A DNA stretch of 48,887 nucleotides from Candidatus Magasanikiibacteriota bacterium (GTDB taxonomy: Bacteria > Patescibacteriota > Minisyncoccia > UBA6257 > GWB1-50-10), in the NCBI GenBank assembly GCA_042218035.1, contig JBDGRM010000020.1, positions 3,759-52,645 of the forward strand. The letters run 5' to 3'. The notes under the pieces were generated by a model. The model was not told where the DNA came from. It made no database searches and saw nothing but the letters and a program-made list of their open reading frames with translations. The position numbers and the translations under genes are program-made. Shown here one piece after another: positions 5,345-48,021 of the stretch (position 1 is the stretch's first letter; each line of letters opens with the position of its first letter).

Positions 5345-5361
5345 TTTTCTTTTTAGAAAAG

Positions 5362-6633: not shown

Positions 6634-6820
6634 ATTTAGTTTTATATTTACTTAAACCCAACGTCACTTTGGGATAAATATACAGTTGTTTTTTCAGTGG
6701 GGAGACCATTGCTTTGCCCTTGCTTCCGCTCGGTTGAGCTGAGGTCGAATTCGTCTGAGTTCCGAAGTTTTATCTCACAAAAAGCATTTACCCCGAATTT
6801 TTATTTGCAGTATGTAATTT

Positions 6821-15602: not shown

Positions 15603-15872
15603 TTATACTTCAACACCGAGTTCCTCACTGAGCTCTTCGTAGGCCTCTTCATTTTCTCGTTTCAGATATTTTAATAAACGTCTTCGCTTTCCGACCATTT
15701 TCAAGAGACCTCTTCGAGAGTTGTGATCCTTCGGATGCTCTTTTAGGTGGTTAACTAATTTATTAATTCTTTTTGTTAACAAACCCACTTGAACTGTAGC
15801 GGAACCTGTATCGTTGTCGTGTTTTTGGTATTTTTCTATAACAGACTCTTTTTGATCTTGAGATAAAGACAT
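15603..15872 (-). CDS. rpsO: 30S ribosomal protein S15
   Basis: 89 aa. DTGSATVQVGLLTKRINKLVNHLKEHPKDHNSRRGLLKMVGKRRRLLKYL matches the S15 signature. Confidence 0.95.
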   Translation of the reverse strand: MSLSQDQKESVIEKYQKHDNDTGSATVQVGLLTKRINKLVNHLKEHPKDHNSRRGLLKMVGKRRRLLKYLKRENEEAYEELSEELGVEV

Positions 15873-16120
15873 TTATATCCTTATTGAATTAAATTAAAAC
15901 CATTTTACGCTTAATATAGTGTATCAGGAATTTGCGTTTATGGCAAATTAAAGCTGTTTATTCAGTTTACTTTAAGATGTCTTAATGGGCTTAAATTTTC
16001 CTTATTTAATGAATAACACGTTATAGAAAGTTCTGAAAAAGTATATAAAGAGACTTGTAAAAGCCAAAAAATAAACCCGAAAAGCGTAAATTTGGATAAT
16101 AATTGTCAAATAATCTTTGC

Positions 16121-16149
16121 TTGACAAGAGTGTGTGTCTGTAAATAATA
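16121..16149 (+). promoter_or_regulatory. Candidate sigma-70 promoter for the LysM/M23 gene
   Basis: TTGACA (16121..16126), a 17-nt spacer, then ATAATA (16144..16149). Confidence 0.4.
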
Positions 16150-16241
16150 GTTCATGATAGCCGTAATATGGGTTTACTTGCTACATTTGGAAGTAAAAAC
16201 CAAAAGCTATTTCATATAAAAATAAAAATTCAATAAAATAT

Positions 16242-22802: not shown

Positions 22803-23072
22803 TTAATAACGTATTTCAAAATCTTCATAATCTTGAATCCCTCCTTCCTCTTTTTCTATACGTTTTACTCTTGCAAAGCTCGGTCCTTCCTTGCACCATT
22901 CTATAAATTTATCTACCTTTTCTGGCTCACCTTCTACTTCAGTATATACTGATCCATCTTCTTTGTTTTTTACAAAACCTGAAACGCCTAATTTATCAGC
23001 GGTTCTTTTGGTGTTAAATCGAAATCCAACACCTTGTACTTTCCCGAAAATTTTTATGTCGTAATGAATCAT
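22803..23072 (-). CDS. acyP: Acylphosphatase
   Basis: 89 aa. The GKVQGVGFR motif and size fit acylphosphatase. Confidence 0.85.
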   Translation of the reverse strand: MIHYDIKIFGKVQGVGFRFNTKRTADKLGVSGFVKNKEDGSVYTEVEGEPEKVDKFIEWCKEGPSFARVKRIEKEEGGIQDYEDFEIRY

Positions 23073-23162
23073 AATTCTGTTTATTACCTTTTTATTCTAA
23101 TAATATTCCAAACTAGTATAAAGAATTTTTGACTCCTAACAAAAACTAAACTAAAATTTAAA

Positions 23163-23187
23163 TACCGCCTTGTAAGGGCGGATTTTT
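23163..23187 (+). promoter_or_regulatory. Terminator-like hairpin plus U-run in the nusA 5' leader (possible attenuator)
   Basis: CCGCCTT-GTA-AAGGGCGG followed by ATTTTT, 25 nt upstream of the nusA start. No upstream + strand gene needs a terminator here. Confidence 0.4.
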
Positions 23188-23211
23188 AAATATTTAAACC
23201 AAAAAAGCAAT

Positions 23212-24474
23212 ATGAAAATGGATCTCAAAAAGTTATCCTCTGCTATGAAGCAGATTGCACATAACAGGGGAATTTCTGAAGATAAGGTGAACAAAGCAAT
23301 TGAGTCTGCTCTTGCCAGCGCATACAAAAAGGAGTATAGATCGGATTCTGAAAAAGTAGATGCTGATTTTGATCCGGAAACCGGGGAGGTTGAATTTTAT
23401 TTGGAAAAAGAAGTAGTAAGACCCGAAGAAGTTTGGATTCCGGGGGATGACAGCGAAGAGGACAAAGAGAAAAAAGAAGAAAAGTTAGGCAGAAAGGTAA
23501 AGCGATATGATGATAATCGACACATTTTACTTGAAGAGGCCCAAGAAGAAAAACCTGAAGCGGAATCGGGAGATAAAATTAGATTTCCTCTTGAGACAAA
23601 AGAGGAATTTGGGCGAATTGCCTCTCAGACAGCCAAACAGGTTATCATTCAAAAAGTGAGGGAAGCTGAAAGAGATTCTATAAAAGAAGAATACAAAAAG
23701 AAAGAAGGCCAAATAGTTTCCGGAGTAGTTCAAAGAAAAGAAAAAGGCCATGTATATGTAGATTTAGATAGAACCATGGGTATAATGTTTGAAAATGAGT
23801 CAATACCCGGTGAAAAATATGATTCGGGCCAGAGGCTCCGATTTTATGTAATGTCCGTTCAGGAAGAAACAAAGAAACGGCCGGGCGTGATACTCTCTAG
23901 AGCCCACCCCAAATTCGTAGTCCGGCTTTTTGAACTAGAGGTTCCTGAAATTGCTGAAGATACAGTTGAAATTGAAAAAATAGCTCGAGAAGCAGGCAGT
24001 CGAACAAAAATAGCTGTTAGCTCTAATGAGGAAGGTATTGATCCAGTCGGTTCTGCAGTTGGCCAAAGAGGGGCTCGCATTATGGCAGTTATAAATGAAC
24101 TCGGCAATGAAAAAATTGATGTAGTCGAATACAGTGAAGAACCAAAAGAATACATTGCTAATGCTATGTCTCCTGCAAAAGTAAAACTGGTTGAAATTGA
24201 AAGCTCCAGAAAAGCAACCGTACTAGTGGAAGAAGACCAGCTCAGCCTAGCAATCGGTAAGGGAGGACAAAACGTACGCCTGGCAGCAAAACTTACAGGC
24301 TGGAAAATTGACGTAAAATCTCAGGAGGAACCTGATGAAGTAGTAGAGAGTGTTGGAGCTGAAGAGCAAGAGCCACAAAAAGAAGAAAACGAAAAAACTG
24401 ACCAAGAAAAAGAAGGACAGGAGGAAGAAGAAAAAGAGAGGGAAGACCTTAACGTGGAAGATTCAGAAGAATAA
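23212..24474 (+). CDS. nusA: Transcription termination/antitermination factor NusA (acidic C-terminal tail)
   Basis: 420 aa. N-terminal domain, S1 (GQIVSGVVQRKEKGHVYVDL) and two KH domains (GSAVGQRGARI; AIGKGGQNVRLA). Confidence 0.93.
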   Translation: MKMDLKKLSSAMKQIAHNRGISEDKVNKAIESALASAYKKEYRSDSEKVDADFDPETGEVEFYLEKEVVRPEEVWIPGDDSEEDKEKKEEKLGRKVKRYDDNRHILLEEAQEEKPEAESGDKIRFPLETKEEFGRIASQTAKQVIIQKVREAERDSIKEEYKKKEGQIVSGVVQRKEKGHVYVDLDRTMGIMFENESIPGEKYDSGQRLRFYVMSVQEETKKRPGVILSRAHPKFVVRLFELEVPEIAEDTVEIEKIAREAGSRTKIAVSSNEEGIDPVGSAVGQRGARIMAVINELGNEKIDVVEYSEEPKEYIANAMSPAKVKLVEIESSRKATVLVEEDQLSLAIGKGGQNVRLAAKLTGWKIDVKSQEEPDEVVESVGAEEQEPQKEENEKTDQEKEGQEEEEKEREDLNVEDSEE

Positions 24475-24524
24475 AACCAAGACATTTTAAATTTAATTTA
24501 AAATATTAAATAGAAAGATAAACT

Positions 24525-25067
24525 ATGTCTCAACAAGACAAATTTTCTCATATACCACCGGGAGATGATATCCCCAATGAAATTCATGCCATAATTGAAA
24601 TTCCAAAAGGAAGCAGAAACAAATATGAATATGATGAAGATTTGGGAGTTTTTAAACTGGATAGAGTTTTGTATTCACCAATGCATTATCCGGTCGATTA
24701 CGGACTTATCCCGCAAACCCTTTCCGAAGATGGAGACCATTTGGACACATTAGTTCTCGGTTCAAATTCTACCTTCCCAGGGTGCTTGGTAGAGGCTCGG
24801 CCTTTGGGGCTGTTTAAAATGATCGATGATGGAGATGAAGACTTTAAGGTCTTGAGTGTCCAAACTGAAAATCCTCGCTTTGAAGAGGTTAACTCCTTAG
24901 AAGATATAAGAAATTACAAACCCCACCTTTTAGAAGAGGTCTCCCATTTTTTTGAAACATATAAAGATTTAGAAGACAAGAATGTTGAAGTAAAAGGGTG
25001 GAGGGGTAAACAAAAAGCCTTTCAAGAGATAGAAAAATCAATAGAAAATTACAAGGCCGAACATTAA
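24525..25067 (+). CDS. ppa: Inorganic pyrophosphatase (family I)
   Basis: 180 aa. IEIPKGSRNKYEYD and DGDHLDTLVL are family I PPase signatures. Confidence 0.93.
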   Translation: MSQQDKFSHIPPGDDIPNEIHAIIEIPKGSRNKYEYDEDLGVFKLDRVLYSPMHYPVDYGLIPQTLSEDGDHLDTLVLGSNSTFPGCLVEARPLGLFKMIDDGDEDFKVLSVQTENPRFEEVNSLEDIRNYKPHLLEEVSHFFETYKDLEDKNVEVKGWRGKQKAFQEIEKSIENYKAEH

Positions 25068-25136: not shown

Positions 25137-25649
25137 TTACAACAAGTTTGGAAATGCCTTTTTTAATACCTTCTCGTGCGAAGTGAGGATTTTGTTTCTT
25201 TCGATGAGTTCTTTAATATCTTTCAGACTTGCTAGCTTAATTTCTTCAACCTCTTCATTCTTTTTTATCTTTTTTGGATGAACCGCAGAGGTCAAAAAAC
25301 AAACAAAATCATGATCACTTTTTTCAATTGTCTCTACCCAATCTGTTACTTTTACCTTAGCTCCCAATTCTTCATTAATCTCCCTCACTAATGTTTCCGT
25401 TTCATCCTCCCCTCTTTTTTGTCTTCCACCCGGTAACTTCCAATAAGAATTCTTATATTCTATCCCCCGTTCAGGATCACTACCTTCTTTTATTAATAAA
25501 ATAAAGTAATCTCCCTCTTTGATAACGGGTACTATCCCAAAGGCGGCCCAATCACTATTACTTGTAATTTCCATGGCAAGGGCAGGGAAGTTTATTTTTT
25601 TTTGTGAGAATACTGACTTTAATTTATAACAAAAATTAGAATTTGTCAA
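25137..25649 (-). CDS. Nudix hydrolase
   Basis: Nudix box GGRQKRGEDETETLVREINEELG. The true start may be the internal Met (MEITSN..., ~25574). Confidence 0.8.
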   Translation of the reverse strand: MTNSNFCYKLKSVFSQKKINFPALAMEITSNSDWAAFGIVPVIKEGDYFILLIKEGSDPERGIEYKNSYWKLPGGRQKRGEDETETLVREINEELGAKVKVTDWVETIEKSDHDFVCFLTSAVHPKKIKKNEEVEEIKLASLKDIKELIERNKILTSHEKVLKKAFPNLL

Positions 25650-25842
25650 TAAAATATCACAAACACATTAACTTGTTTGACATTAAATTTAAAAATTTTT
25701 TGCAAAATTAAACAATTATTTTTTTAAAAAACAAGTTTCACCTTTTTTCTTTTTTTAATTTTCTTTGTTAAATATAGATAATTCATTGATATTCTCGTAT
25801 AAAAAAATATTAGATTCTTAACCAACCCTATTTATATGATTT

Positions 25843-25874
25843 AAGATTTAATAATTATAAGATTTAATAATTAA
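25843..25874. repeat. Tandem AT-only 16-bp repeat (AAGATTTAATAATTA x2)
   Basis: AAGATTTAATAATTA occurs at 25843..25857 and again at 25859..25873, separated by one T. Confidence 0.85.
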
Positions 25875-25884
25875 ATTAATTTTC

Positions 25885-26154
25885 AAAAAAATGTTTCGAG
25901 CGAAACATTTTTTTCGGTTCTGATAAGTAGAATTGTTTCAAAAAAACATTTTAGCTTTAAAATAAAATCAAATTGTTTAGCTCGAAACATTTTTATGGGA
26001 GAGTTGGGTAAAATTGTTTCAAAAAAACATTATTTTTCGATTGAGGGGTTGAATGTTTCAAAAAAACATTCATTTTAGTCTAAATTAAAGAAAATTGTTT
26101 CAAAAAAACATGTTTTCCACAGATTTAGACAAGAATGTTTCGCAATGTTTCGAT
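25885..26154. repeat. Array of seven palindromic 16-20-bp repeats (core TGTTTC-N4-GAAACA) in a ~40-bp register
   Basis: Copies:
- 25891..25908 ATGTTTCGAGCGAAACAT
- 25931..25950 AATTGTTTCAAAAAAACATT
- 25971..25990 AATTGTTTAGCTCGAAACAT
- 26012..26031 and 26051..26070
- 26093..26112
- 26133..26154 (two direct half-sites AATGTTTCG)
The TGTTT start positions are spaced 42, 40, 41, 39, 42 and 40 bp apart. Confidence 0.9.
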
Positions 26155-26167
26155 GATTTGTCAACTA

Positions 26168-26252
26168 AATTAAGCAATTTTTCCAATAAACTTAAAGTTA
26201 AGAGGCCTTTGTTAGCAAATTTTTTGACTTTAATTTTAAAAATTGCTTAATT
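26168..26252. repeat. 15-bp inverted repeat (AATTAAGCAATTTTT / AAAAATTGCTTAATT) with 55-bp spacer
   Basis: Arms at 26168..26182 and 26238..26252 are perfect reverse complements. Confidence 0.8.
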
Positions 26253-26316: not shown

Positions 26317-26345
26317 TTGACAGTATTAAATAATAGTTATAAAAT
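26317..26345 (+). promoter_or_regulatory. Near-consensus sigma-70 promoter for the GC-rich ORFan
   Basis: TTGACA (26317..26322), a 17-nt spacer, then TAAAAT (26340..26345). It lies about 50 nt upstream of the ATG at 26397. Confidence 0.55.
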
Positions 26346-26396: not shown

Positions 26397-26777
26397 ATGG
26401 CGTTCAAACGAGGAATTTTTTCGATCTTTCACGAATTCTTTGGATTTGACGGGTTCAGCGCTGCAGAGCTCGCTGCGATGAAGAAGAAGGACTTGGTTGT
26501 CACAAAGGACATGGCCGCCATCGCAGCTTTTAAGATTGGAGCGCTCATGAATGAGCTCGACTTCACTCCACCCTTTGAGGGTGCGAGCGCGTACTCCAAT
26601 TTAAAGGTCCACCTGAGCCTCAATGGAGCCCAGCTCGTTTGGGGCAAAGTTCCTCAGACTGGCTATGCCCGCCCGAGCAAAACCGAAGACGACTTTATCT
26701 TCCTCTTCAATCAGGAAGAGGAATGGGTCGGGATGGCTCGCTCTCAGGCTGAACCTGAACCCAAAGAAGCTTCCTAA
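26397..26777 (+). CDS. Hypothetical protein, GC-rich ORFan #1 (126 aa)
   Basis: ATG-initiated ORF. 33 of 60 nt are G+C at 26461..26520, against 16 of 60 at 26281..26340. Third codon positions are mostly G/C (GAG, AAG, CTC, GCC). No motif recognised. Confidence 0.7.
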   Translation: MAFKRGIFSIFHEFFGFDGFSAAELAAMKKKDLVVTKDMAAIAAFKIGALMNELDFTPPFEGASAYSNLKVHLSLNGAQLVWGKVPQTGYARPSKTEDDFIFLFNQEEEWVGMARSQAEPEPKEAS

Positions 26778-26799
26778 CCGAATAGTTTTTCTAATTTAT

Positions 26800-26834
26800 C
26801 CCGGGACATTGAGTTGTCCCGGGCTTTTTATTTT
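26800..26834 (+). terminator. Intrinsic terminator of ORFan #1
   Basis: CCCGGGAC-N8-GTCCCGGG followed by CTTTTTATTTT. Confidence 0.85.
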
Positions 26835-26919
26835 AGATTTAGTTTTAGTAATTTTGACAATCTTTCTGAGTTTGGGTTTACTGACAATAGCCTACCTTCA
26901 AAAAAATCTTCTATCTGAT

Positions 26920-27732
26920 ATGGATACAATCGATTTTATTTTTAGAGGTGATAACAGTTCTGGTTTTCAAAGCAGGGAAGAAGAAATGCGTTGCATCAAA
27001 AAAGCCAAGAAAGGAGATCGAAAAGCCAGAAATAAAATATTAGAAAAACACAAAAAATTTGTCTTTAAATTCATTCAGCAATGGAACAATGACAACGTTG
27101 ATATTAAAGATCTATTTCAAGAAGCATTGCTTGGGTTGATCGAGGCAATAGAAAAAGTCGAACCTCAGAGAGATGTAAAATTCTTAAGCTATGCCCGATA
27201 CCATGTTAAAAGAAAAGCGCTTGATTTTTTGACTCAAACCAACGATTTGATAAGACTTCCTCAAAACAAAAAGACCCTCTTACTTGAAATAAGAAAAACG
27301 AGAGATCGATTGAAGCAACAAAACCTAGAAGAGCCTAATCTTTCTGAGATTGCAGAAGAGATGAACAGAGACATAGAAGATTTAGAATTCGTAATCCGAA
27401 CATCTCAGACCCCAAGATTTTTAGAAGACAAGATCGGCTCAGACTCTAACCCGTTAAGACTAAAGGAAGTATTGTCAGCCCCTGAAAGAAAAGAATCAGA
27501 AAATATATCAAATGAAAGATTTCGTAAGTTTATTAGAAAGCATCTTTCAAAATTATCTCAAAGAGAGGCAGAAATACTCGAGAAGTATTTTGGGATAAAT
27601 TGTAAGTCTCAAAATTTAAAACAGATTGCAAACTCAAAGGGCTTAACCAGAGAGAGGATTAGACAGATTAAACAGAAAGCTATCCGAAGGTTGAGGGACT
27701 TTAATGATGAAGAGTTAAGAATGTTTTTATAA
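26920..27732 (+). CDS. RNA polymerase sigma factor, sigma-70 family (regions 2, 3 and 4 present; no long region 1)
   Basis: 270 aa from the ATG at 26920 (MDTIDF...). Region 2 (DLFQEALLGLIEAIEKVEPQRDVKFLSYARYHVKRKALDFL, LIRLPQN) and region 4.2 (LKQIANSKGLTRERIRQIKQKAIRRLR). The track start at 26623 overlaps the upstream gene and its terminator, so I reject it. Confidence 0.85.
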   Translation: MDTIDFIFRGDNSSGFQSREEEMRCIKKAKKGDRKARNKILEKHKKFVFKFIQQWNNDNVDIKDLFQEALLGLIEAIEKVEPQRDVKFLSYARYHVKRKALDFLTQTNDLIRLPQNKKTLLLEIRKTRDRLKQQNLEEPNLSEIAEEMNRDIEDLEFVIRTSQTPRFLEDKIGSDSNPLRLKEVLSAPERKESENISNERFRKFIRKHLSKLSQREAEILEKYFGINCKSQNLKQIANSKGLTRERIRQIKQKAIRRLRDFNDEELRMFL

Positions 27733-27738
27733 CCTTAA

Positions 27739-27770
27739 CCCGGACTTTTTAGGTCCGGGCTTTTCTTTTT
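27739..27770 (+). terminator. Intrinsic terminator of the sigma factor gene
   Basis: CCCGGAC-N7-GTCCGGG followed by CTTTTCTTTTT. Confidence 0.85.
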
Positions 27771-27797
27771 GACAATATTTATAAGAATTACTATAAT
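27769..27797 (+). promoter_or_regulatory. Perfect consensus sigma-70 promoter
   Basis: TTGACA (27769..27774), exactly 17 nt, then TATAAT (27792..27797). Confidence 0.65.
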
Positions 27798-27875
27798 TTA
27801 AGTAACAGTAGGGTTTGAAAACTCACGTTTTTAAACCCTCCGAGCTACCTTTAAAAAAATATAACCTGAAATCTT

Positions 27876-28256
27876 ATGAAACTATTTGCCTCTTTTCTGC
27901 TTTTAGCAGTGATTGGAGCTGCGCTTGCAAGCAGACTCAATTCCGAGTCTTGGGAGGTTTGGACAGTTTGGGGACTTGTCTCCTTGCTGTCGCTGATAGT
28001 CCTTTATCCTTCCGTGCTACATAAACCCCAAGAGGCATTTTATGCAATGGTTGCAGCCTCCGTTTTTGGATGGATTATTCCAGATATTGGCTCTGCGATT
28101 TCCTCTCTTTTAGCGCAGCCAAAAACTTGGGGTTTAATTCTGATAATTTCGTTAGGGGTTTGTTTGGTTTACAATCCCCAATTTCTTTACCCACTTCTCG
28201 TATTGGGGTTAGTAATTGTCGGCTTTAAAACCATGCTAAAACCCCTTGTAAAATAA
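27876..28256 (+). CDS. Hypothetical 4-TM membrane protein
   Basis: 126 aa with four hydrophobic helices. No motif recognised. Confidence 0.65.
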   Translation: MKLFASFLLLAVIGAALASRLNSESWEVWTVWGLVSLLSLIVLYPSVLHKPQEAFYAMVAASVFGWIIPDIGSAISSLLAQPKTWGLILIISLGVCLVYNPQFLYPLLVLGLVIVGFKTMLKPLVK

Positions 28257-28257
28257 C

Positions 28258-28349
28258 TCGGGAGGGCGGGGAGCCTGCACCCCGTTCGGTGCAAGCCGAG
28301 AAAAACGCAGCCATACAGGGCGTGAAGTTTTACTTCACGCCCTTTTTTA
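28258..28349 (+). ncRNA. GC-rich structured element ending in a strong intrinsic terminator (3' UTR element or small RNA; family unknown)
   Basis: CTCGG...CCGAG encloses the TGCACC-CCGTTC-GGTGCA hairpin. Next comes GGGCGTGAAG-TTTTA-CTTCACGCCC (28318..28342) plus TTTTTT. It starts 2 nt after the stop of the 4-TM gene. Confidence 0.4.
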
Positions 28350-28431
28350 TTGGGAGTAAAAGGTTATCTTTTTAATTACTTTCCTTTATACTTATTACTG
28401 AGCTGTATTTTCACAAAAAAGTGTTTACCTC

Positions 28432-28602
28432 GTGCCTAGAACCCAAAATAGAAAAGCCCTCCACTTAAAAGGAACTGGGACAAAAAATAAACTTCCGAAA
28501 GAGTTATCAAAATATAAAAATCGCCTCCGAGCTCCCGACTTGCCTTGGTATAGAAACGAAGAATCCGAGAAGAGTTACAACAACAATACTCAACCGAGAT
28601 AA
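28432..28602 (+). CDS. Candidate 56-codon basic ORF (GTG start) hidden in an apparently empty 350-bp gap
   Basis: Own translation: (V/M)PRTQNRKALHLKGTGTKNKLPKELSKYKNRLRAPDLPWYRNEESEKSYNNNTQPR*. A terminator follows 33 nt later. No Shine-Dalgarno seen. Below the track cutoff. Confidence 0.3.
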   Translation: MPRTQNRKALHLKGTGTKNKLPKELSKYKNRLRAPDLPWYRNEESEKSYNNNTQPR

Positions 28603-28634
28603 GATTAGTTCTTCTAATGAAAAGTTTTTATTAA

Positions 28635-28667
28635 GGGTATAGAGTTCAAGCTCTATACCCTCTTTTT
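28635..28667 (+). terminator. Intrinsic terminator
   Basis: GGGTATAGAG-TTCAAG-CTCTATACCC (10-bp stem) followed by TCTTTTT. Confidence 0.8.
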
Positions 28668-28703
28668 AGTTATGCTAAAATAAAAAATGCAATTAGATTT
28701 AAT

Positions 28704-29408
28704 TTGAAAGTATTTATGGAAAATTTTGAAAAAATAAATAAAAAAAGAAACTCGAGTGATCAAATAGAAGAAGAGTCCTTTAAAAATAAAAAAAGTGATC
28801 CTGAGACTCTGCGAGAGATTGACCGACTTAATGAAAATCCAAAATTAATAGAAAAGAAAATGGACAATGGTGAATTGGCTGATTTTATCGAAAAAGTTAA
28901 ATCAACTCCGGAATTCAAAAAGTATAAAAAACAGAAAGTTAGGCTGGAAACCTTTTCGAAGATGAAAGAAAAATTAATTGACCGTCTGAAGCAGGTAGAT
29001 AAAAAGGATGAATACCAAGAAGAAATAATTAAGTTTTTTAAGGACAGAGTTAAATCTTTAAAATCAACCATTGAAGATTACAGACGAAATATAGTCAACA
29101 TGGAAAGATTGAGAGGTTCAGCTATAGGATTTCATATGAGCAATAGAGAAAAAAAGCAACGACTGAAAAAAGTTGATAGGGAGCGTCGTAATAATCACAA
29201 TTTGATCCAAGACTATTTAAGGCAAATTAATAGGTTGCCTAATAAAATAAATGAAGAATTGGACATTGATATCGAATGGAGTAGATTTTTTTCTTCTAGC
29301 CAAATAGAAAATAGAAACTCTGTTCGGGATTGGGCTTACAATACTGCTGTAGTTCAAAGAATGAAAGAACTACTTAAAAAAGCAAAAGAAAAAAAGGCAG
29401 AACACTGA
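28704..29408 (+). CDS. Hypothetical K/E/R-rich coiled-coil protein
   Basis: 234-aa ORF (TTG in the track; an ATG at 28716 is an alternative start). No motif recognised. Confidence 0.6.
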   Translation: MKVFMENFEKINKKRNSSDQIEEESFKNKKSDPETLREIDRLNENPKLIEKKMDNGELADFIEKVKSTPEFKKYKKQKVRLETFSKMKEKLIDRLKQVDKKDEYQEEIIKFFKDRVKSLKSTIEDYRRNIVNMERLRGSAIGFHMSNREKKQRLKKVDRERRNNHNLIQDYLRQINRLPNKINEELDIDIEWSRFFSSSQIENRNSVRDWAYNTAVVQRMKELLKKAKEKKAEH

Positions 29409-29427
29409 CTGAGTAGTGCCTGCCCTT

Positions 29428-29673
29428 TTACAAACTTTTTTCGGACAACTTGCTTGCCAGTTGTTCAACAAACAACTGCAATTCAAACTCATTATCTAAA
29501 TCAGCTTCAAATTCAGATATTTTATTAACTTTCTTTTTAAACTCGGCTAATTTCTTTTCCTGAAGAATATCTTCAGTGGCTAATTCTAGGGCTAATCTTT
29601 CCACCTCTTCAAAAAGCCGTGTGTTTCTGGACTTTCTTTTTGCAGTTTTCCATTTACTTATGAGGTTGTCCAT
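29428..29673 (-). CDS. Hypothetical 81-aa helical protein
   Basis: ATG-initiated ORF convergent with the previous gene. Charged, helical-looking. No motif. Confidence 0.5.
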   Translation of the reverse strand: MDNLISKWKTAKRKSRNTRLFEEVERLALELATEDILQEKKLAEFKKKVNKISEFEADLDNEFELQLFVEQLASKLSEKSL

Positions 29674-29810
29674 GTTTATCTAAATTTTTAAAAGAACGTA
29701 AGGAATAAATTACTTTAATATATAAATATTTAATCGTCAAATAAGCTGGAGCTAATTTAATTGAATTATGAACTTCTTTCAGTTTTAATAAAAAGAGATA
29801 ACTTTAGTTT

Positions 29811-32060
29811 TTGATGGCAAAAAATAAATCAAAATTCAGAGAATTCTTTGACCATATTCACGAAGAAACGAAAAAGAGTATTTGGGTGGTTACTTTTCTT
29901 GGGATAGCAATTCTTTTAATTTTAGCTGCTACAGGCCAAGCGGGGCCAGTGGGTAATAGCTTTTACTCTTTTTTTCATAGACTTTTTGGGATAGGTTATT
30001 ATCTCCTCCCTATCATCTCTTTTACTCTTGCCTTTTCTTTTATAAGTCCCGACAAAAAAAGGAGAGCCAGCGTCACTATAGGGGCGGTCATCTTTTTTAT
30101 ACTTTCTGGCCTCGGTTTTATAGATATAATTTCAAAAGGAACTGCTGGGCTGACAGGTTCAGTAGTAGGGTCTCTTAGTCAGCCGTTTGGAATTCCTGCC
30201 TCTTTAGTAATAACTGGCTTAATTTTAATTATTTCTTTTCTTCTAGTTTTAAATCGACCGCTTAAACCCAAAAAAGCCTGGGAAGCTATAAAATCAACAA
30301 TCCCTAACTGGAGACCGCCTAAAAGCTCTCAGTCTTCGCTGGAAGTGAAAGATATGACTGACTCTTCTAATGAAGACAGCTCTGAAAAAGATGATGATCA
30401 AGAAGACAAACAACCAGAAACCTCGAAAGAGGAAAATAGTACTAATGAAAGCATAAAGAAGGAAGTTGTAGATAAGGATAAGGCCAAAAAAGAAGAAACA
30501 AAACCATCAAAAGAAAACCCTGAGATCAAAACAAAAAATGGCAACTCACTTACCAGTAATTCTTCAGGCAACTATGAAGCTCCGCCGCTATCTTTGCTTA
30601 ATTCTAACACGAAAAAACCGACTATCGGCGACCTTAAGGCAAACGCAAATATTATTCAAAGGACCTTGGATAGTTTTGGTATTGATGTGGAAATGGGAGA
30701 AGTTGAAGTAGGCCCTACAGTAACCCGATACACCCTAAAACCTGCTGAAGGGGTAAAATTGTCAAAGATAACCTCTCTTAATCAAGACCTAGCGTTAGCA
30801 CTTGCAGCCCACCCTGTAAGAATCGAGGCTCCTATACCGGGTCGTTCCGTGGTAGGGGTAGAGGTCCCTAATGATTCTGCTGCGATGGTCCGGCTCGGAT
30901 CTTTGATAAGTATGGAAGAGTTTCAAAACTCTAACCCTCTCACAATAGCCTTGGGAAGGGATGTAAGCGGAGATCCGGTTTTTGTAGACATTGCAGAAAT
31001 GCCGCACTTATTAGTAGCCGGTGCTACCGGTTCGGGAAAATCCATAGCAATTCATTCTATGCTTGTATCGCTTTTATCCAAAAACTCTCCCGAAGATTTA
31101 AAATTGATCCTTACTGACCCAAAACGAGTTGAATTATCTGCTTATGAAGATATACCTCACCTTGTGACTGATGTTATTACCAAAAATAAAAAATCATTAT
31201 CTGCTCTGAAGTGGGCAATAGATGAAATGGAAAGACGTTATGAAACATTATTGGATGCCGGAGCCCGAGATATTAAAAGCTTTAACAAAAAAGACGACCA
31301 GCATATGCCCTACATTTTAATAGTAATGGATGAATTAGCTGATCTTATGAGCTCTCACGGCAAAGAAGTTGAGGGGGCAATAGTAAGGCTCGCTCAGATG
31401 TCCCGGGCTACAGGCATTCATTTGGTCGTCTCAACCCAGCGACCCTCGGTTGAAGTGATCACCGGTTTGATTAAAGCTAATATTACAACCAGAATAGCCC
31501 TGCAGGTTGCTTCCCAAGTGGATTCTAGAACTATTCTTGATTCTGGAGGTGCTGAAAAGCTATTAGGCAGCGGTGATATGTTGTATGAATCCTCTGAGTC
31601 TTCTAAACCAAGAAGGATTCAAGGGGCCTATATCTCTGAAAAAGAAATCAAGGATGTCGTGAATTACATTAAAGAGAACAATGAAACGGGAGAACAAGAA
31701 GTAGAACTAGAAAAAGAAGAAAAAAGCTCTTCTCAAGTGGATTTGGATGAATACCAGAAAAAACAAGAAAAAGATGAACTATATGAAGATGCGGTAAAGA
31801 TAGTCAAAAAGGCTGATAAGGGCTCGGCTTCCCTTTTGCAAAGAAGATTGAGAATAGGTTATGCAAGAGCAGCCCGCATTTTAGACCAGATGCATGAGGA
31901 GGGCATAGTAGGCCCTGCTAGAGGCTCAAAGGCCCGAAAAGTCTTAGTGGATACTGAAGAGGGGGGTAAAAATTCAAAGAAGCAAGAAGACCAACAAGAC
32001 TCTCAAGAAAAAAATGAAATAAAAGAATCGAACCCAGAAGAAGGGGGAGATAAAAAATAA
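29811..32060 (+). CDS. ftsK: DNA translocase FtsK/SpoIIIE
   Basis: 749 aa. N-terminal TM segments, an acidic linker, a motor domain with Walker A (GATGSGKS), and a C-terminal gamma winged-helix (LLQRRLRIGYARAARILDQM). Confidence 0.93.
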   Translation: MMAKNKSKFREFFDHIHEETKKSIWVVTFLGIAILLILAATGQAGPVGNSFYSFFHRLFGIGYYLLPIISFTLAFSFISPDKKRRASVTIGAVIFFILSGLGFIDIISKGTAGLTGSVVGSLSQPFGIPASLVITGLILIISFLLVLNRPLKPKKAWEAIKSTIPNWRPPKSSQSSLEVKDMTDSSNEDSSEKDDDQEDKQPETSKEENSTNESIKKEVVDKDKAKKEETKPSKENPEIKTKNGNSLTSNSSGNYEAPPLSLLNSNTKKPTIGDLKANANIIQRTLDSFGIDVEMGEVEVGPTVTRYTLKPAEGVKLSKITSLNQDLALALAAHPVRIEAPIPGRSVVGVEVPNDSAAMVRLGSLISMEEFQNSNPLTIALGRDVSGDPVFVDIAEMPHLLVAGATGSGKSIAIHSMLVSLLSKNSPEDLKLILTDPKRVELSAYEDIPHLVTDVITKNKKSLSALKWAIDEMERRYETLLDAGARDIKSFNKKDDQHMPYILIVMDELADLMSSHGKEVEGAIVRLAQMSRATGIHLVVSTQRPSVEVITGLIKANITTRIALQVASQVDSRTILDSGGAEKLLGSGDMLYESSESSKPRRIQGAYISEKEIKDVVNYIKENNETGEQEVELEKEEKSSSQVDLDEYQKKQEKDELYEDAVKIVKKADKGSASLLQRRLRIGYARAARILDQMHEEGIVGPARGSKARKVLVDTEEGGKNSKKQEDQQDSQEKNEIKESNPEEGGDKK

Positions 32061-32065
32061 ATAAA

Positions 32066-32815
32066 ATGACAAAAGACCCCAAAAAGTTTTCTACTATAAT
32101 CACTGAAGCTATGGAAAAAGAAGGAGTTACTATTAGCCAACTGGCCCAAGAAACCGGCATATCTGAAAACTTCATTAAATTTTTGGTAGAAGGTCGAATT
32201 GAAGAGCTCCCCTCTCGCCCGTATACTCATGGTTATGTATTAAAAATATGCAAAGTGCTTAATATGGATGGGGAGAAAATGTGGAATAAATTTTTTGATG
32301 ATTCGGAAAACCTTGAAGTTTCAGGGAGAAAAGATAAACTGCCGCAAAATAGATTTGCAGTTTCTAATTTAAATAAAAAAGCTGTTTTCATAGGGGTATT
32401 GATTTTAGCCTTGATTGGTTATTTTGTGTTCAGGGCCTTTGCTGGTGCAAATATCTCTGATGAATTTAAGGTGTTTAATTTAAAACAGGACACTACCACT
32501 GTGGTTAAGAAGTCAAAATATACTCTCAAAGGAAAGGTGAACCCTGAGTATAAGTTGACAGTTAATAACTCACCGGTATACCCTGAAGAAGGAGGAGGGT
32601 TTCAAAAAACAATTCAACTTGAACCTGGACTAAACGCTGTTCGGTTTAATATTCATGGTTTCTTGGGGCGAGAAGCTACTAAAGAAAAGAAAATATTTTT
32701 TAAAGCTACTTCCACTGATACTGAAAATGTTTCTACGAAAGAAGACAAAACTAAAGGCACCACCTCTACTTTGAATTCAAATAATTTTATAAATTCGCAA
32801 AATGGCTCAAGATAA
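32066..32815 (+). CDS. RodZ-like HTH (XRE-type) membrane protein
   Basis: 249 aa. N-terminal HTH ([23 protein letters not shown]), a single TM ([17 protein letters not shown]), and an extracytoplasmic C-terminal domain. Confidence 0.65.
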
Positions 32816-33866
32816 AAATGAAGACAACTTAGATGATGTTTTAGACTCGCTCCAATCAAAATACGGAGAGGGGGCTGTAATGAAATTAGGAGACCAGCAA
32901 AAAGTGGAAGTCGATACTATTTCATCCGGCTCTTTTTCACTTGATCTAGCCCTGGGAGTAGGGGGACTGCCAAAAGGTAGAGTTATAGAAATATATGGCC
33001 CTGAAGCAAGCGGTAAAACTACGCTTGCTCTTCACGCTATAGCCGAAGCTCAAAAGGAAGGAGGGAAAGCCGCATTTATAGACGCAGAACACGCCCTTGA
33101 CCCTGAGTATGCAGGAAACATTGGAGTAGATGTAGATAACTTGGTTGTTTCTCAACCTGACAGCGGAGATGAGGCTCTAAATATCCTTGAAAGTCTAGTT
33201 GAGTCCGGAGCCTTTGATATAGTAGTGGTGGACTCTGTGGCGGCGCTTACTCCAAAAGAGGAAATAGAAGGTGAGATGGGTGACAAGCACGTGGGGCTGC
33301 AAGCAAGACTTATGTCTCAGGCCCTTCGTAAACTCACTTCTATAACTTCGAAAACAGGCACAGCCGTAATATTTATTAATCAAATAAGAATGAAGGTGGG
33401 GGTAAGATACGGAAACCCTGAGACCACTTCGGGAGGACGAGCTCTTAAATTTTATTCTTCAGTCCGCCTTGATATAAGAAGAAAAGCAAAGATTAAAAAA
33501 GATAATGAAGTTATTGGAAACAGAACAAGAGTTAAAGTAGTAAAGAATAAAGTTGCGCCACCCTTCAAAGTTGCAAAGTTTGATATATTTTACGGAAAAG
33601 GTATAGCTTATGAATCTGACTTACTTACTGTAGCCTCTCAACATGAAGTAGTAGAGAGGGCCGGTTCTTACTATAAATACGAAGGGGAAAATATAGGCCA
33701 AGGAAAAAGAAAGGCCATGAAAACCTTACAAGAAAACGAAGAATTACTTGAAGAAATAGAAGAGAAAACCCTAAAAGCTGTAGGAGAACTACCTGAAGAG
33801 GGAAAAGAAAATGAAGAGATCCAAGAAGAAGAGTCGGAAGACGACGAAAAAGACGAAGATGAATAA
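32802..33866 (+). CDS. recA: Recombinase RecA (acidic C-terminal tail)
   Basis: 354 aa. [12 protein letters not shown] (Walker A), IVVDSVAAL, and the canonical RecA core. Confidence 0.96.
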
Positions 33867-38419: not shown

Positions 38420-39418
38420 ATGCCTAACAACAAACCAAAGCTTATATCAGGAATCAGACCAACGGGAAAGCTTCATTTAGGAAATTATCTAGGAGCTCTA
38501 AAACAGTTTGTTGAACTGCAAGACTCAAATGAATATGAGTGCCTTTTCTTTATTGCAGATTACCATTCTCTAGCTGGTGGTTTTGAGTCAAGCAAAAACC
38601 GTGAGCAAATTATAGATACTACCGCAAGCTATATGGCAGCTGGATTAAGCCCGAAAAAATCAACTATATTTATTCAGTCCTCTATCCAGGAGCACACAAA
38701 CCTAGCCTGGATTCTTTCTTCTTTGGCTTCTTTTGGAAAATTAAAACGAATGACCCAATTCAAAGAAAAAAGCAAACAAAAAGATAACGTAGATGTAGGT
38801 TTATTCTATTACCCTGTTTTAATGAGTGCGGATATACTTTTGTATGATGCCAAAAAGGTCCCGGTAGGAGAAGACCAAACTCAACATTTAGAGTTAACTC
38901 GTGATCTCGCCCGTAAATTTAACAATAGATTTTCTGACACTTTTGAGGTTCCGGAACCTGTAATGACGGAAGCCCCCAGAATAAAAGATCTCCAAAATCC
39001 GGAAAATAAAATGTCAAAATCCTCTCCTAAAGGGTGCCTTTTTATAGATGATTCCCCAAAAGTTATAAAAGACAAAATAATGTCGGCTCTAACGGATTCC
39101 GGCAATAACATTATTTTCGACCCAGAAAACAAACCGGGAATTTCAAATCTTATTCTTATATACTCCTCTCTTGCCGACCTTTCGCGTGAAAAAATCAAAG
39201 ATGAATTTCAGGATTCTGGATATGGAGATTTCAAAAAATCTCTCTCGAAGCTGATAATTGATTATTTTGAAGACTACAGGAATAAAAAAGAAAACTTGAT
39301 GAAAGACAAAGAAAGAACTGAAAAGACCTTAAGGGCTGGAAACAAGAAAGCGAGAAAAATTGCTGCTAAAAAAATGACCGAGGTTAAGCAAAAAATAGGA
39401 ATTGAAGTTATAAAATAA
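38420..39418 (+). CDS. trpS: Tryptophanyl-tRNA synthetase
   Basis: 332 aa. SGIRPTGKLHLGNYLGA (HIGH-type) and KMSKS, with the size typical of TrpRS. Confidence 0.93.
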   Translation: MPNNKPKLISGIRPTGKLHLGNYLGALKQFVELQDSNEYECLFFIADYHSLAGGFESSKNREQIIDTTASYMAAGLSPKKSTIFIQSSIQEHTNLAWILSSLASFGKLKRMTQFKEKSKQKDNVDVGLFYYPVLMSADILLYDAKKVPVGEDQTQHLELTRDLARKFNNRFSDTFEVPEPVMTEAPRIKDLQNPENKMSKSSPKGCLFIDDSPKVIKDKIMSALTDSGNNIIFDPENKPGISNLILIYSSLADLSREKIKDEFQDSGYGDFKKSLSKLIIDYFEDYRNKKENLMKDKERTEKTLRAGNKKARKIAAKKMTEVKQKIGIEVIK

Positions 39419-39450
39419 AAAGACAGCTCGATTTCTAGATATAATTAATC

Positions 39451-39489
39451 CCAAAAGAAAAAGCCCCGCCTGGCAAAGCCAAACGGGGC
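39451..39489 (-). terminator. Intrinsic terminator of GC-rich ORFan #2
   Basis: The reverse strand reads GCCCCG-TT-TGGC-TTT-GCCA-GG-CGGGGC followed by TTTTTCTTTTGGG. Confidence 0.8.
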
Positions 39490-39512
39490 CCGGAAAGCGC
39501 GAAATCTCTCAC

Positions 39513-40544
39513 TTATCCATTGTTCTGTTCTTCAAGCCGGGACTTCAGCTTCTGGAGAGCAGCGTAGAGGGCTCCCCACGCCTTGTGTGAGGGGTCGATG
39601 ACCTTCCCTTCCAAAGACGAGAACGCATCGGAGCGGTTTATCTGGATCTGCGGGGTGGTGCCGTTTCCGACACCCCGCGCGTCCAGATAGGCTTCTCCGC
39701 CTTCCCAGGGGAATTTGCCGATTACGGTATCCTGCTCACCGTTCAGCAAAGAGGTCACGCGAGACGGGGACATCTGCAGTTCCTCGAGACGTTCCTCGAA
39801 CTCCTGCTTTTTTTGCTCCCGCTCCTCCTTGTAGCGGCGCACCTCCTCGGTGCACGCTACTCGGAGATCGTGAAGCCGGTCGAACAAAACCTTGCTCATT
39901 GAGCTGCCCTCCTTTTCGGGAACGAAGACCTTGGTCTCGCCCCGGAAGTTGACGATGAGGTGCATCTTGTGAAGATTGTCCTCATCGGAATCGGAGAGAG
40001 CGGCCTTTCGCTCCTCGTCGTTCGCGGAGCGGACGTAGCCGATCTCCTCAGCTCTCCTTGAAGCCTTTTCCAGGAGCCGGTACGGATTGCCTCCGTCCCA
40101 CTCCTCGCTGATCAGGTGGGTGTAATGCTCCACCCGCTCGATCAGCGCATCAAAGTGGATACGCTTCCTGATTCGGCTCTCCCAAAAGGAGGGAACTTCG
40201 TTCATTAGCCGCTCCCGAACCTCCTGACGGAGGTTGTAAACGGCGGTGTTCTGCTGCCCCTCGTACTTGAGCTTTCGGATGACTTTTGAGAGGTGCCGAA
40301 GCACCTCCAAAAGCTCAGCGTACAGCTCGGTCTCTCGAGAGGCCCTCTCGCTGACCTCATCAGGGGAAGCATCGCCTTTGACCTCCGTAATTTCCTGGAG
40401 CTCTTCGATGAGCCTATCCGCCTTCTCAACCGGCGTTTCCTCTGTCTGCTCTTGAGATTGATTGGACTGATTCGAGGTTCCGTTCGTGGAAGGTCCGAGT
40501 CCAGCCTCTTCCATTGCATTTTTCATTGCATCATTCGTTTGCAT
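39513..40544 (-). CDS. Hypothetical protein, GC-rich ORFan #2 (343 aa, acidic, coiled-coil-like)
   Basis: ATG-initiated ORF. 34 of 60 nt are G+C at 39601..39660, against 22 of 60 in trpS (39301..39360) and 24 of 60 in rpsA (40741..40800). Codons are mostly GAG/AAG/CTC/ATC/AAC, whereas the neighbours use GAA/AAA/TTA/ATT/AAT. No motif recognised. Confidence 0.75.
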   Translation of the reverse strand: MQTNDAMKNAMEEAGLGPSTNGTSNQSNQSQEQTEETPVEKADRLIEELQEITEVKGDASPDEVSERASRETELYAELLEVLRHLSKVIRKLKYEGQQNTAVYNLRQEVRERLMNEVPSFWESRIRKRIHFDALIERVEHYTHLISEEWDGGNPYRLLEKASRRAEEIGYVRSANDEERKAALSDSDEDNLHKMHLIVNFRGETKVFVPEKEGSSMSKVLFDRLHDLRVACTEEVRRYKEEREQKKQEFEERLEELQMSPSRVTSLLNGEQDTVIGKFPWEGGEAYLDARGVGNGTTPQIQINRSDAFSSLEGKVIDPSHKAWGALYAALQKLKSRLEEQNNG

Positions 40545-40672
40545 GGTCTCAAAGAGCTTTTATTCAGTATTGCATGAAAAAGATTTCCTGATTTTCGGAA
40601 ACCATTGATGTTGAGTGCTATTTTAAAACTAACATAGACTTAAAATTTTGTCAAACAGACTATCAAAACCCT

Positions 40673-40706
40673 AAAAAAAACAAAAACCCCCTCTTTCAAG
40701 AGGGGG
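40673..40706 (-). terminator. Intrinsic terminator downstream of rpsA
   Basis: CCCCCTCT-TTCA-AGAGGGGG, with a long T-run on the reverse strand (the A-run at 40673..40686 on +). Confidence 0.85.
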
Positions 40707-40733
40707 TTTTAGAGCTAAATTACAATTTTTAAG

Positions 40734-47099: not shown

Positions 47100-47106
47100 T
47101 TTAACT

Positions 47107-47490: not shown

Positions 47491-47559
47491 TCATACTTAA
47501 AAATTAAGATATAAGATATAGAAAGGTCGAATATATTTATTTACCAAATTAAAAGAATA

Positions 47560-47937: not shown

Positions 47938-47962
47938 TTTTTTATTTTGTTGGAACCTTAAA

Positions 47963-47997: not shown

Positions 47998-48021
47998 TAT
48001 AAAAATATTTCTATAATTTCG

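Follow-up and report, generated by a model that had tools for sequence, protein, structure and literature searches.

The chromosomal parS/ParABS centromere consists of a 16-bp site (TGTTNCACGTGAAACA) that is bound by ParB/Spo0J and is among the most strongly conserved sites of protein binding in bacteria, and chromosomal parS sites are usually regarded as independent 16-bp loading sites. Among plasmid systems, KorB is a ParB-family protein of the IncP group, with operators O_B of sequence TTTAGCSGCTAAA, and the sopC centromere carries the motif TGGGACCACGGTCCCA. In the F plasmid, sopC comprises 12 direct repeats of 43 bp, and every one contains a 16-bp inverted repeat to which the ParB-family protein SopB binds (PMC3177203). 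ParB of P. aeruginosa has been found to bind GTTTCAC-type half-parS (PMC5961200). Genes of the ParB family (K03497/PF02195) are common across CPR, with 1717 genomes listed as compared to 1985 for GyrB (Meheust et al. 2019, Supplementary Data 1, PMC6744442). TIGR-Tas systems, among them palindromic ‘stem’ arrays, are likewise found in CPR (PMC12045711).

We analyzed a stretch of 48,887 bp from a Paceibacteria (CPR) chromosome, hereafter the window, in which the noncoding gap between the end of a Nudix gene (25137-25649, minus strand) and the start of the first downstream ORF (26397) extends over 747 bp at 15-27% GC, close to the 750 bp that the initial annotation had called unusually long. Within it, an array at 25892-26151 comprises six palindromes and one direct-repeat unit, with TGTTT-N5/6-AAACA cores beginning at 25892, 25934, 25974, 26015, 26054 and 26096. 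Compared with canonical parS, one 16-bp site has three mismatches (site 1, 25892..25907, TGTTTCGAGCGAAACA, enclosed in a perfect 14+14 palindrome at 25885-25914 with arms AAAAAAATGTTTCG and CGAAACATTTTTTT), another has four (site 3, 25974..25989, TGTTTAGCTCGAAACA), and the remaining four are 15-bp variants on the plus strand, all TGTTTCAAAAAAACA (site 2, 25934..25948; site 4, 26015..26029; site 5, 26054..26068; site 6, 26096..26110). The best window site thus matches parS at 13 of 16 positions, with the central CACGTG lost. The four 15-bp units read TGTTTC-AAA-AAAACA, with arms TGTTT/AAACA around a 5-nt centre, so that their half-sites lie 1 bp nearer each other than in the 16-bp form, and the asymmetric core points the same way in each of them. 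These 15-bp cores are identical; over 17 bp three remain so and the fourth has one mismatch, among spacers that are unrelated. The motif TGTTTC-N4-GAAACA, under which the array had been introduced, fits two of the seven units (one with A for C) and not the rest, and the seventh unit does consist, as had been described, of two direct half-sites (ATGTTTCG at 26135 and 26145).

When remeasured from one TGTTT to the next, the intervals are 42, 40, 41, 39, 42 and 40 bp, exactly the even spacing first listed; from centre to centre they are 41.5, 40.5, 40.5, 39 and 42 bp, with unrelated linkers. The previously proposed super-repeat of three units (~120 bp) finds no statistical support, given that spacer pairs 1-4 and 2-5 score z=2.9 and z=2.0 and that out-of-register pairs score up to z 2.5, several being no worse than these in-register ones. 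Of eight exact TGTTT-N5/6-AAACA matches in the whole window, six sit inside 219 bp of the array; the expectation is ~0.17 matches per pattern over the full 48.9 kb, and the observed counts were not attained in any shuffle. In a scan of the 48.9 kb, TTGTTTCAAAAAAACAT at one mismatch or fewer was likewise confined to the array, and the motif is essentially restricted to this gap rather than being scattered through the window; scatter at similar density would have spoken against the original description.

Further elements bracket the array. On its left, an AT-rich leader (25650..25887, 15-20% GC) holds a promoter-like site for the divergent Nudix gene (TTGACA at 25649-25644, minus strand) and a 16-bp tandem repeat detected by TRF (AAGATTTAATAATTAT, 2.8 copies, 25830-25873); this repeat is real but not AT-only as had been stated, with one G per unit. 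Immediately 3' of the last palindrome lies the 9-mer TTTTCCACA (26113..26121, plus strand), earlier noted as DnaA-box-like and indeed present, followed by a distal module (26135..26165, plus strand) in which direct half-sites with a 10-bp period (ATGTTTCGCA/ATGTTTCGAT) precede TTTGTCAAC. The element ends in an inverted repeat (arms 26168-26190 and 26230-26252, 23 nt at 87%), and the perfect 15-nt core reported for it (26168/26238) is genuine. Farther downstream, the near-consensus promoter mentioned in the same place corresponds to a promoter-like TTGACA-17-TAAAAT at 26317-26345, an 11/12 match that faces the adjoining cassette.

This lineage-specific cassette (26397..29700, plus strand) lies between the array and ftsK, outside the conserved element, and contains an ORFan (26397-26777), a divergent sigma-70-family gene (26920-27732), a small membrane protein (27876-28256), a DUF3232 protein (28704-29408) and an 81-aa ORF (29428-29673, minus strand). 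We found no homologue of the cassette in any array-keeping relative examined, and none above 37% identity for its sigma factor; a search of genome contigs with the latter gave a single match, to Nitrospina at 28% identity, and was uninformative because the protein is too divergent. Beyond the cassette, ftsK, a rodZ-like HTH_25 gene and recA (29811..33866, plus strand) follow, and every relative has these three on the downstream side of the array locus. Within the 48.9-kb window and flanks of 8-10 kb in 10 relatives, neither Pfam nor tblastn detected parA or parB (the tblastn queries, B. subtilis Spo0J and Soj, matched no locus). Pfam also revealed no Nop-domain (Tas) or Cas gene in the window or flanks, and Rfam searches in gathering and E-value modes returned tRNAs only, apart from two chance-level matches.

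To see how the sites compare with those of relatives, we looked at the syntenic gap between the nusA block and ftsK-HTH_25-recA, where nine relatives with NusA 57-66% identical to that of the window carry ATGTTT...AAACAT palindromes, with one to eight full sites per array. A tenth locus (L087) has degenerate units only, together with the distal module. The L094 array contains eight sites, three of them perfect canonical parS (TGTTTCACGTGAAACA), and each of the six sites in L002 is 1-2 mismatches from parS (14-15/16). Across 725 kb (the window plus the loci), sequences within three mismatches of parS occur in the arrays only, except for one stray. When orthologous gaps are compared, as had been proposed for weighing sites against spacers, the sites and their arms are kept at the same syntenic position; the arms are invariant and the inner 6 bp vary both between and within arrays, with CACGTG, CACGCT, ACCGGT, GTTGAC and CGAGCG among the variants alongside the 15-bp form. 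The variants follow the NusA tree, with relaxed 15/16-bp sites in the window and L003 (both of which combine the two forms and share the terminal direct half-site unit) and canonical sites in L002 and L094. Inner half-site positions do not maintain self-complementarity, and recognition by a protein is therefore favored over an RNA hairpin. The nusA block beside the window array is inverted. An FtsK search of metagenome contigs recovered 80 loci, none with an array, all at 38-56% identity and too distant for this purpose.

Unit length in the relatives is not fixed (30-91 bp), but their site spacings are multiples of ~10.2 bp (30, 41, 50, 61, 72 and 82 bp), and a Rayleigh test on the relatives alone gives R ~0.7 and p ~1e-6 at 10.2 bp with a mean phase near 0. 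The suggestion that all sites face the same side of the helix is therefore borne out, as a conserved property of the whole array family. The distal module is shared as well: that of the window is homologous to ATGTTTCACA-TGTTTCACAC-TATTTTGTCAAG of L094, with equivalents in L002, L087, L088, L003 and L005, and in relatives this accessory module comprises TTTTCCAYA, direct half-sites and TTTTTTGTCAA. The counterpart of TTTTCCACA, TTTTCCATA, occupies the same place in L002 and L088 and is weaker in L087 and L094; the 9-mer belongs to the conserved distal module rather than being an isolated DnaA box. Module identity is 84% over 127 bp (L002/L094) and 97% over 67 bp (L087/L088), as against just 72-75% for nusA and ftsK coding DNA between the same pairs, so that a noncoding module is better conserved than the coding sequence of its neighbors. 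Both the sites and this module are under purifying selection. In most relatives (L002, L003, L087, L088, L090 and L094), a hairpin lies 10-60 bp from the module. The array is immediately upstream of ftsK in L002, L003, L005 and L094, and elsewhere is separated from it by the Nudix gene (L087/L088), a 169-aa ORF (L090) or a PGM gene (L091/L092).

Orthologous to canonical parS arrays, phased, and confined to one gap, the window sites most likely represent a strongly derived form of the parS cluster that relatives keep at the same locus. The centromere option raised in the initial annotation, in which the motif had gone unrecognized, gains support from this comparison, with arms that equal the outer parS half-sites and syntenic orthologues that hold perfect or near-perfect parS; because relatives keep parS sites at the same spot, a centromere is likelier here than an origin or a gene switch. 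On balance we lean towards a sopC-like, helically phased chromosomal centromere of the parS type. We infer that ParB, not another protein, binds the diverged 15-/16-bp sites of the window (e.g. ATTGTTTCAAAAAAACAT and TGTTTCGAGCGAAACA), and that a partition complex would act in segregation. In the mechanism we propose, the dimer-binding palindromes and half-sites, presented on one face of the DNA helix, would let a ParB-family protein nucleate on the sites and then assemble a higher-order partition complex, which, by way of ParA and/or SMC loading, may segregate and organize this part of the chromosome. A gene-strand switch and cumulative GC-skew minimum lie ~8-10 kb from the array, at 15.6-18 kb; neither a DnaA-box cluster nor dnaA was found at that switch. 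The shortened half-site distance of the four 15-bp sites could be incompatible with parS-catalyzed closure of the ParB clamp. We know of no chromosomal parS for which strict helical phasing or an ultra-conserved accessory module has been described, and the two features (the module with its TTTTCCAYA, direct half-sites and TTTTTTGTCAA) could imply a different or additional protein. Our search of the literature on parS/ParB in Patescibacteria, CPR and Parcubacteria found no description of such arrays.

In a replication origin, the TGTTTCAC(A)-like half-sites would stand for diverged iterons or DnaA boxes, with unwinding at the AT-rich tandem repeat; such a reading would suit the long AT-rich gap and its repeat, the agreement of TGTTTCACA with TTATCCACA at 6/9 positions, a ~4-fold higher density of DnaA-box-like 9-mers in the gaps (8 in 7.15 kb vs 50 in 190 kb outside) and the TTATCAACA-N2-ATAT(C/G)CACA element that L002 and L094 have in common upstream of the array. 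We nonetheless regard it as improbable to a marked degree: at one mismatch or fewer there is one box in the window gap and at most two in any relative's gap (15 in the whole window vs 12.3 expected), and conservation in the half-site falls on ATGTTT rather than on the CACA end read by DnaA. No dnaA or rep gene was found nearby, with no dnaA in the window. Genes flanking the array run in the same direction on both sides, and replication would run head-on into ~9 kb of essential genes to the left. The cumulative GC-skew plot that had been recommended as an origin check shows no inflection here, skew being positive in plus-strand genes on both sides (~+0.14 left, ~+0.07 right), the opposite of the prediction, and its minimum at ~17-18 kb falls at the strand switch; the iteron-type origin suggested earlier is accordingly not supported, given the single box, the missing dnaA and the unchanged skew sign. 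A cooperative operator for the cassette and its sigma factor, or for ftsK, as the reason for the array is very unlikely. It would draw on the strong promoter-like site facing the cassette (11/12) and on the array's position directly before ftsK in four relatives, but relatives that keep the array lack the cassette, the promoter lies ~165 bp past the last site and beyond the inverted repeat, array flanks are often hairpins rather than promoters, and no single promoter goes with the array, since other genes intervene before ftsK in L087, L088, L090 and L091 (with L092 also having the PGM gene). Reading each unit as a promoter with TTGTTT as its -35 was rejected for want of a consistent -10 element, and a terminator was rejected in view of A/U-rich stems with a long stem in unit 1 only; none of the SOS/LexA, CIRCE, CtsR, CodY or IHF consensuses fits the spacing or both arms. 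Least credible of all is a transcribed array of guide RNAs or structured RNAs of the CRISPR-like or TIGR stem-loop type. Regular ~41-bp units with a conserved palindrome and variable spacer recall such systems, as does the occurrence of TIGR-Tas with palindromic ‘stem’ arrays in CPR (PMC12045711), and the fold z-score is -4.9; the low fold energy, however, is a trivial consequence of repeated palindromes. Against this reading, Nop-domain (Tas) and Cas genes are absent from the window and flanks, the dual edge/loop-repeat organization and box C/D-like motifs are missing, the period in relatives ranges between 30 and 91 bp, inner stem positions are uncompensated, and Rfam has no match to the array.

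Decay of an ancestral parS cluster, with specific binding lost in the window lineage, would account for the window version being the most degenerate (3-4 mismatches or 15-bp sites), and a 3.4-kb cassette has been inserted beside the array, whose neighboring nusA block is inverted. We consider such a relic improbable because neutral decay is not expected to preserve four identical 15-bp cores (three over 17 bp, the fourth with one mismatch) among unrelated spacers, the 39-42-bp phasing and the distal half-site/TTTGTCAAC module. Less improbable, though still unlikely, is an assembly site for a dimeric HTH/RHH protein other than ParB, which would recognize ATGTTT arms with loose spacing and polymerize cooperatively on a single face of the helix. 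Its function could be nucleoid organization, membrane tethering or centromere binding; one candidate is the membrane-anchored RodZ-like HTH_25 protein of the adjacent ftsK-recA operon, and on this reading the parS resemblance would be ancestral or convergent. Such a protein would be consistent with invariant arms around 6 variable inner bp, with 15- and 16-bp forms together in the window and L003, with strict phasing, with an accessory module of direct half-sites at a 10-bp period, with an HTH_25 gene syntenic with the locus in every genome and with the absence of parAB nearby. It sits poorly with three perfect 16/16 parS sites in L094 and six at 14-15/16 in L002, and with ParB being common in CPR. 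We know of no protein family besides ParB that reads the canonical parS sequence, and the RodZ HTH is known to contact MreB rather than DNA. As a less likely possibility, parS, near-universal elsewhere, may in this Paceibacteria lineage have been remodeled into a spacing-relaxed (15-/16-bp) array of TGTTTC half-sites, read by a co-evolved ParB of changed specificity or a non-ParB protein such as the RodZ-like HTH, that forms a helically phased sopC-like complex with the accessory module. To our knowledge, a helically phased, sopC-like chromosomal centromere with an accessory module is an architecture not yet described.

This ultra-small CPR clade departs from the usual arrangement with a syntenic tandem array on a single helix face, coupled to a noncoding module that is more conserved than the adjoining essential genes, and with a site that changes from perfect parS into 15-bp variants inside one family-level group. 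With ParB as the binder, this would provide a natural series for the co-evolution of ParB-parS specificity and spacing tolerance; with another binder, it would imply a new centromere or organizer protein. In practice, the locus can also serve as a landmark to anchor and orient Paceibacteria genome assemblies.

Set beside the known systems, the array shares with chromosomal parS identical outer half-site arms (TGTTTC...GAAACA), the grouping of several sites in one intergenic region, and orthologous arrays in relatives that hold perfect or near-perfect parS. It differs in that the central CACGTG is replaced in the window (13/16 at best, with 4/6 sites of 15 bp), in the tandem, helically phased arrangement at 39-42 bp, and in having a highly conserved accessory module 3' of the array with parAB not nearby. 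KorB sites are dispersed single operators, in contrast to the phased window array; the TGTTTAGC half-sites of L002, L087 and L088 contain TTTAGC, as does the KorB half-site. This analogy suggests that ParB-family proteins may differ in the inner bases they read and by 1 bp in half-site spacing. Extra half-sites are a further point of likeness to parS, given the binding of GTTTCAC half-parS by ParB (PMC5961200). Iteron/DnaA-box origins resemble the locus in phased repeated sites, a long AT-rich gap, an AT-rich tandem repeat and one 9-mer, but here a box cluster, an initiator gene and a skew inflection are missing and the sites, instead of being direct iterons, are dyads that match parS. TIGR-Tas and CRISPR arrays, of which the former occur in CPR bacteria (PMC12045711), have regularly interspaced palindromes with variable linkers in common with it, whereas this locus is syntenic and chromosomal, has no Tas/Cas gene or box C/D-like motifs, and varies in period among relatives. 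In architecture the window array matches sopC, being built of head-to-tail units of fixed length (about four helical turns), every one of which carries a single dyad of 15-16 bp and a linker that is not conserved. Unlike plasmid-borne sopC, the array is chromosomal, its motif is unrelated, its 6-7 units have heterogeneous cores, and no cognate sopAB/parAB operon is adjacent (no ParA/ParB domain or tblastn match).

Between the Nudix gene (25137-25649, minus strand) and the ORF starting at 26397 lies a 747-bp non-coding gap (15-27% GC), which contains, as the initial annotation described, six palindromic cores (starts 25892, 25934, 25974, 26015, 26054 and 26096) and a seventh unit of two direct ATGTTTCG half-sites (26135 and 26145), with units spaced 39-42 bp apart. 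The motif proposed for them, TGTTTC-N4-GAAACA, holds for two units only and fails for four identical 15-bp units (TGTTTCAAAAAAACA). Exact TGTTT-N5/6-AAACA occurs eight times in the 48.9-kb window, with ~0.17 matches expected per pattern, and six of the eight fall inside 219 bp of the array. Because the four 15-bp cores are identical amid spacers that are essentially unrelated to one another, the sites themselves are the maintained element; the suggested ~120-bp three-unit super-repeat is not significant (z=2.9 for spacer pair 1-4, z=2.0 for 2-5, and up to 2.5 for several out-of-register pairs). The gap also has the reported 16-bp tandem repeat, not AT-only as described since every unit holds one G, an inverted repeat (26168-26252) and a promoter-like TTGACA-17-TAAAAT (26317-26345).

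The window is an AT-rich, gene-dense chromosomal segment encoding aminoacyl-tRNA synthetases, NusA, inorganic pyrophosphatase, FtsK, RecA, GyrA, RNase J and tandem T4SS pilins, the last being four small T4SS/TrbC-type paralogues of 133, 127, 125 and 118 aa (46698-48378). A local GC-rich stretch at 39000-41000 (46-47% versus ~37%) holds a 343-aa ORF (39513-40544, minus strand) with no credible Pfam family. The nearest NusA homologues by BLASTP come from sources named Candidatus Paceibacterota, Jorgensenbacteria and Minisyncoccia, with local identity no higher than 70-73%, so the organism is a Paceibacteria-type CPR/Patescibacteria member without close sequenced relatives.

Using NusA as the anchor, we obtained ten related loci (L002, L003, L005, L087, L088, L090, L091, L092, L094 and L096) with NusA 57-66% identical to that of the window. 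All ten have the same gene order, with TsaD, IleRS, PrsW and HSP20 followed by the nusA block, a variable gap, and then ftsK, HTH_25 (RodZ-like) and recA. Nine of these loci have one to eight full palindromes with identical arms (ATGTTT...AAACAT), bordered by A and T runs, in the nusA-ftsK gap; L087 has degenerate units, and its sole clear part is the distal module, a conserved block beyond the last palindrome. The array locus is syntenic over a deep clade and strongly constrained. No such array was seen at FtsK-anchored metagenome loci (FtsK 38-56% identical), so it is clade-specific or has changed beyond recognition elsewhere. The acylphosphatase-nusA-pyrophosphatase block of the window (22803-25067) is inverted relative to L002, L003, L005 and L094, the relatives inspected for orientation, so the array borders a rearrangement-prone region. 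A free-standing LAGLIDADG homing-endonuclease gene immediately adjoins the array in L087 (5551-6009), with an apparent remnant of this type in L088 (6490-6720), where RecA (263-2410) also has an intein bearing a LAGLIDADG domain.

The arms of the array are the outer half-sites of parS, the 16-bp site of the chromosome-segregation protein ParB (canonically TGTTTCACGTGAAACA). The canonical or ancestral state persists in L094, where three of eight sites are perfect parS, and in L002, whose six sites have 1-2 mismatches. L005 and L092 (three and two sites) have TGTTTACCG(G/A)TAAACA, with TGTTTGTCGGTAAACA also in L005, while the five sites of L090 are TGTTTGTTGACAAACA and the four of L088 have mixed inner sequences. 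L003, the window's nearest neighbour in the NusA tree, mixes 16-bp and 15-bp (6+3+6) forms among six sites plus a terminal unit, and its array ends with AATGTTTCGAACGTTTC, as does that of the window. These variants track the NusA tree, as (window, L003), (L002, L094), (L087, L088) and (L091, L092, L096, Jorgensenbacteria). Across 725 kb (the window and all fetched loci), sequences with at most three mismatches to parS were found only inside these arrays, one stray excepted. The sub-clade of L091, L092 and L096 has only one or two palindromes and, twice per locus between or after them (5320-5460, 6510-6640 and 7700-7800, respectively), a different ~34-bp motif, AAAAAGTGTAGGTTTCATGGGCTTATCAGC, which includes a GTTTCAT half-parS variant and is 89-91% conserved between genomes.

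Counting the relatives only, adjacent sites lie 30, 31, 41, 49-53, 61-63, 72 or 82 bp from one another, integer multiples of ~10.2 bp (Rayleigh R ~0.7, p ~1e-6, n=28, mean phase near 0), and p is still ~1e-5 once repeated spacings within each locus are collapsed. The 41-bp ladder of the window is therefore one case of a conserved same-face arrangement. The distal module consists of TTTTCCAYA directly 3' of the last palindrome, a half-site with ACTTTTTTGTCAA and TGTTTCACAC, a linker of ~30 bp, and two or three direct half-sites repeating every 10 bp, the final element being TTTTTTGTCAA(G/C). Its identity is 84% over 127 bp for L002/L094 and 97% over 67 bp for L087/L088, pairs whose nusA and ftsK coding sequences are only 72-75% identical. 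The window keeps TTTTCCACA (26113-26121), the direct half-sites (26136-26151) and TTTGTCAAC (26157-26165); thus the 9-mer, present as annotated and called DnaA-box-like, belongs to this module by homology, as do the two direct half-sites. In the window, L002, L003, L087, L088, L090 and L094, the element is closed off by a hairpin or inverted repeat. In L090 (6525-6750), the palindromes are TGTTTGTTGACAAACA and its complement, so that TTTGTCAAC, elsewhere 3' of the array, is incorporated in every site; a separate distal module was not seen there.

The earlier proposal of an iteron-type origin at the array is rejected, as DnaA-like 9-mers number one in the window gap and at most two in the gap of any relative. 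Moreover, DnaA would read the opposite end of the half-site from the one that is conserved, genes on both flanks are co-directional, and GC skew is positive on both sides, higher on the left. Upstream of the arrays, L002 (8913-8941) and L094 (7388-7416) share a block, AAAWTGTTATCAACAATATAT(C/G)CACACC, 93% identical over 29 bp, with two DnaA-box-like 9-mers (TTATCAACA and ATATCCACA) 11 bp apart, and a weaker look-alike lies at ~25642-25668 of the window. Window genes left of ~15.6 kb are all on the minus strand and those from 16.2 to 38 kb nearly all on the plus strand, with the cumulative GC-skew minimum near 17-18 kb. The switch at 15603-16241 could be an origin-like divergence point; its intergenic DNA holds one DnaA-box-like 9-mer and no DnaA-box cluster. 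Switch and minimum, 8-10 kb from the array, are the sole hint that the array locus may be origin-proximal. Control of the downstream cassette and sigma factor, another function initially offered, is likewise dismissed as the reason for the array to exist, since the cassette (26397-29700, between array and ftsK) is unique to this genome and found in none of the relatives, several of which have another gene between array and ftsK. This lineage-specific cassette encodes a GC-rich 126-aa ORFan (no homologue among 1.84 billion representatives searched), a divergent sigma-70-family protein without region 1.2, a small membrane protein, a DUF3232 protein and an 81-aa ORF (minus strand). The sigma factor is a poor anchor for comparison (best homologue 37% identical); its listed ORF (26623-27732) is over-extended, the true start by public gene call being 26920 (270 aa, MDTIDF...), and a GC-rich terminator-like hairpin (26800-26823) separates it from the ORFan.

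A TIGR/CRISPR-like RNA array was discarded: Nop and Cas genes, dual repeats, box motifs and Rfam matches are all absent, and the period is variable. The repeated palindromes by themselves account for the RNA-fold z-score of -4.9. Within each half-site, the three inner positions often lack self-complementarity, which favours half-site recognition by a protein over an RNA stem. That protein would be ParB, even at the diverged sites of the window, with the 15-bp half-site spacing presumably tolerated; binding by another protein, such as the syntenic membrane-anchored HTH_25 protein, is possible. A decaying relic is also possible but disfavoured, given identical sites, preserved phasing and a retained distal module.

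Based on the parS arms, the canonical relatives, the synteny and constraint, and the literature on ParB, half-parS and sopC, the window array is most likely a derived, sopC-like, helically phased chromosomal parS-type centromere, on which a partition complex would nucleate. Clusters of parS sites near origins are familiar, so the kind of element is not new. What appears to be new is the tandem, phased arrangement on a chromosome, the ultra-conserved accessory module, the parS drift inside one clade and the unusual 15-bp variant sites of the window; full-text literature searches on parS/ParB in Patescibacteria, CPR or Parcubacteria returned no description of any of the four. The finding would be of greater interest if the binder were another protein or a ParB of altered specificity. 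ParB (K03497/PF02195) occurs in 1717 CPR genomes versus 1985 for GyrB (protein-family table of Meheust et al. 2019, Supplementary Data 1, PMC6744442), and Pseudomonas aeruginosa ParB binds GTTTCAC-type half-parS (PMC5961200). In sopC of the F plasmid, SopB binds a 16-bp inverted repeat within each of 12 repeats of 43 bp (PMC3177203), and the window array is similarly tandem, with units of about four helical turns and one dyad per unit.
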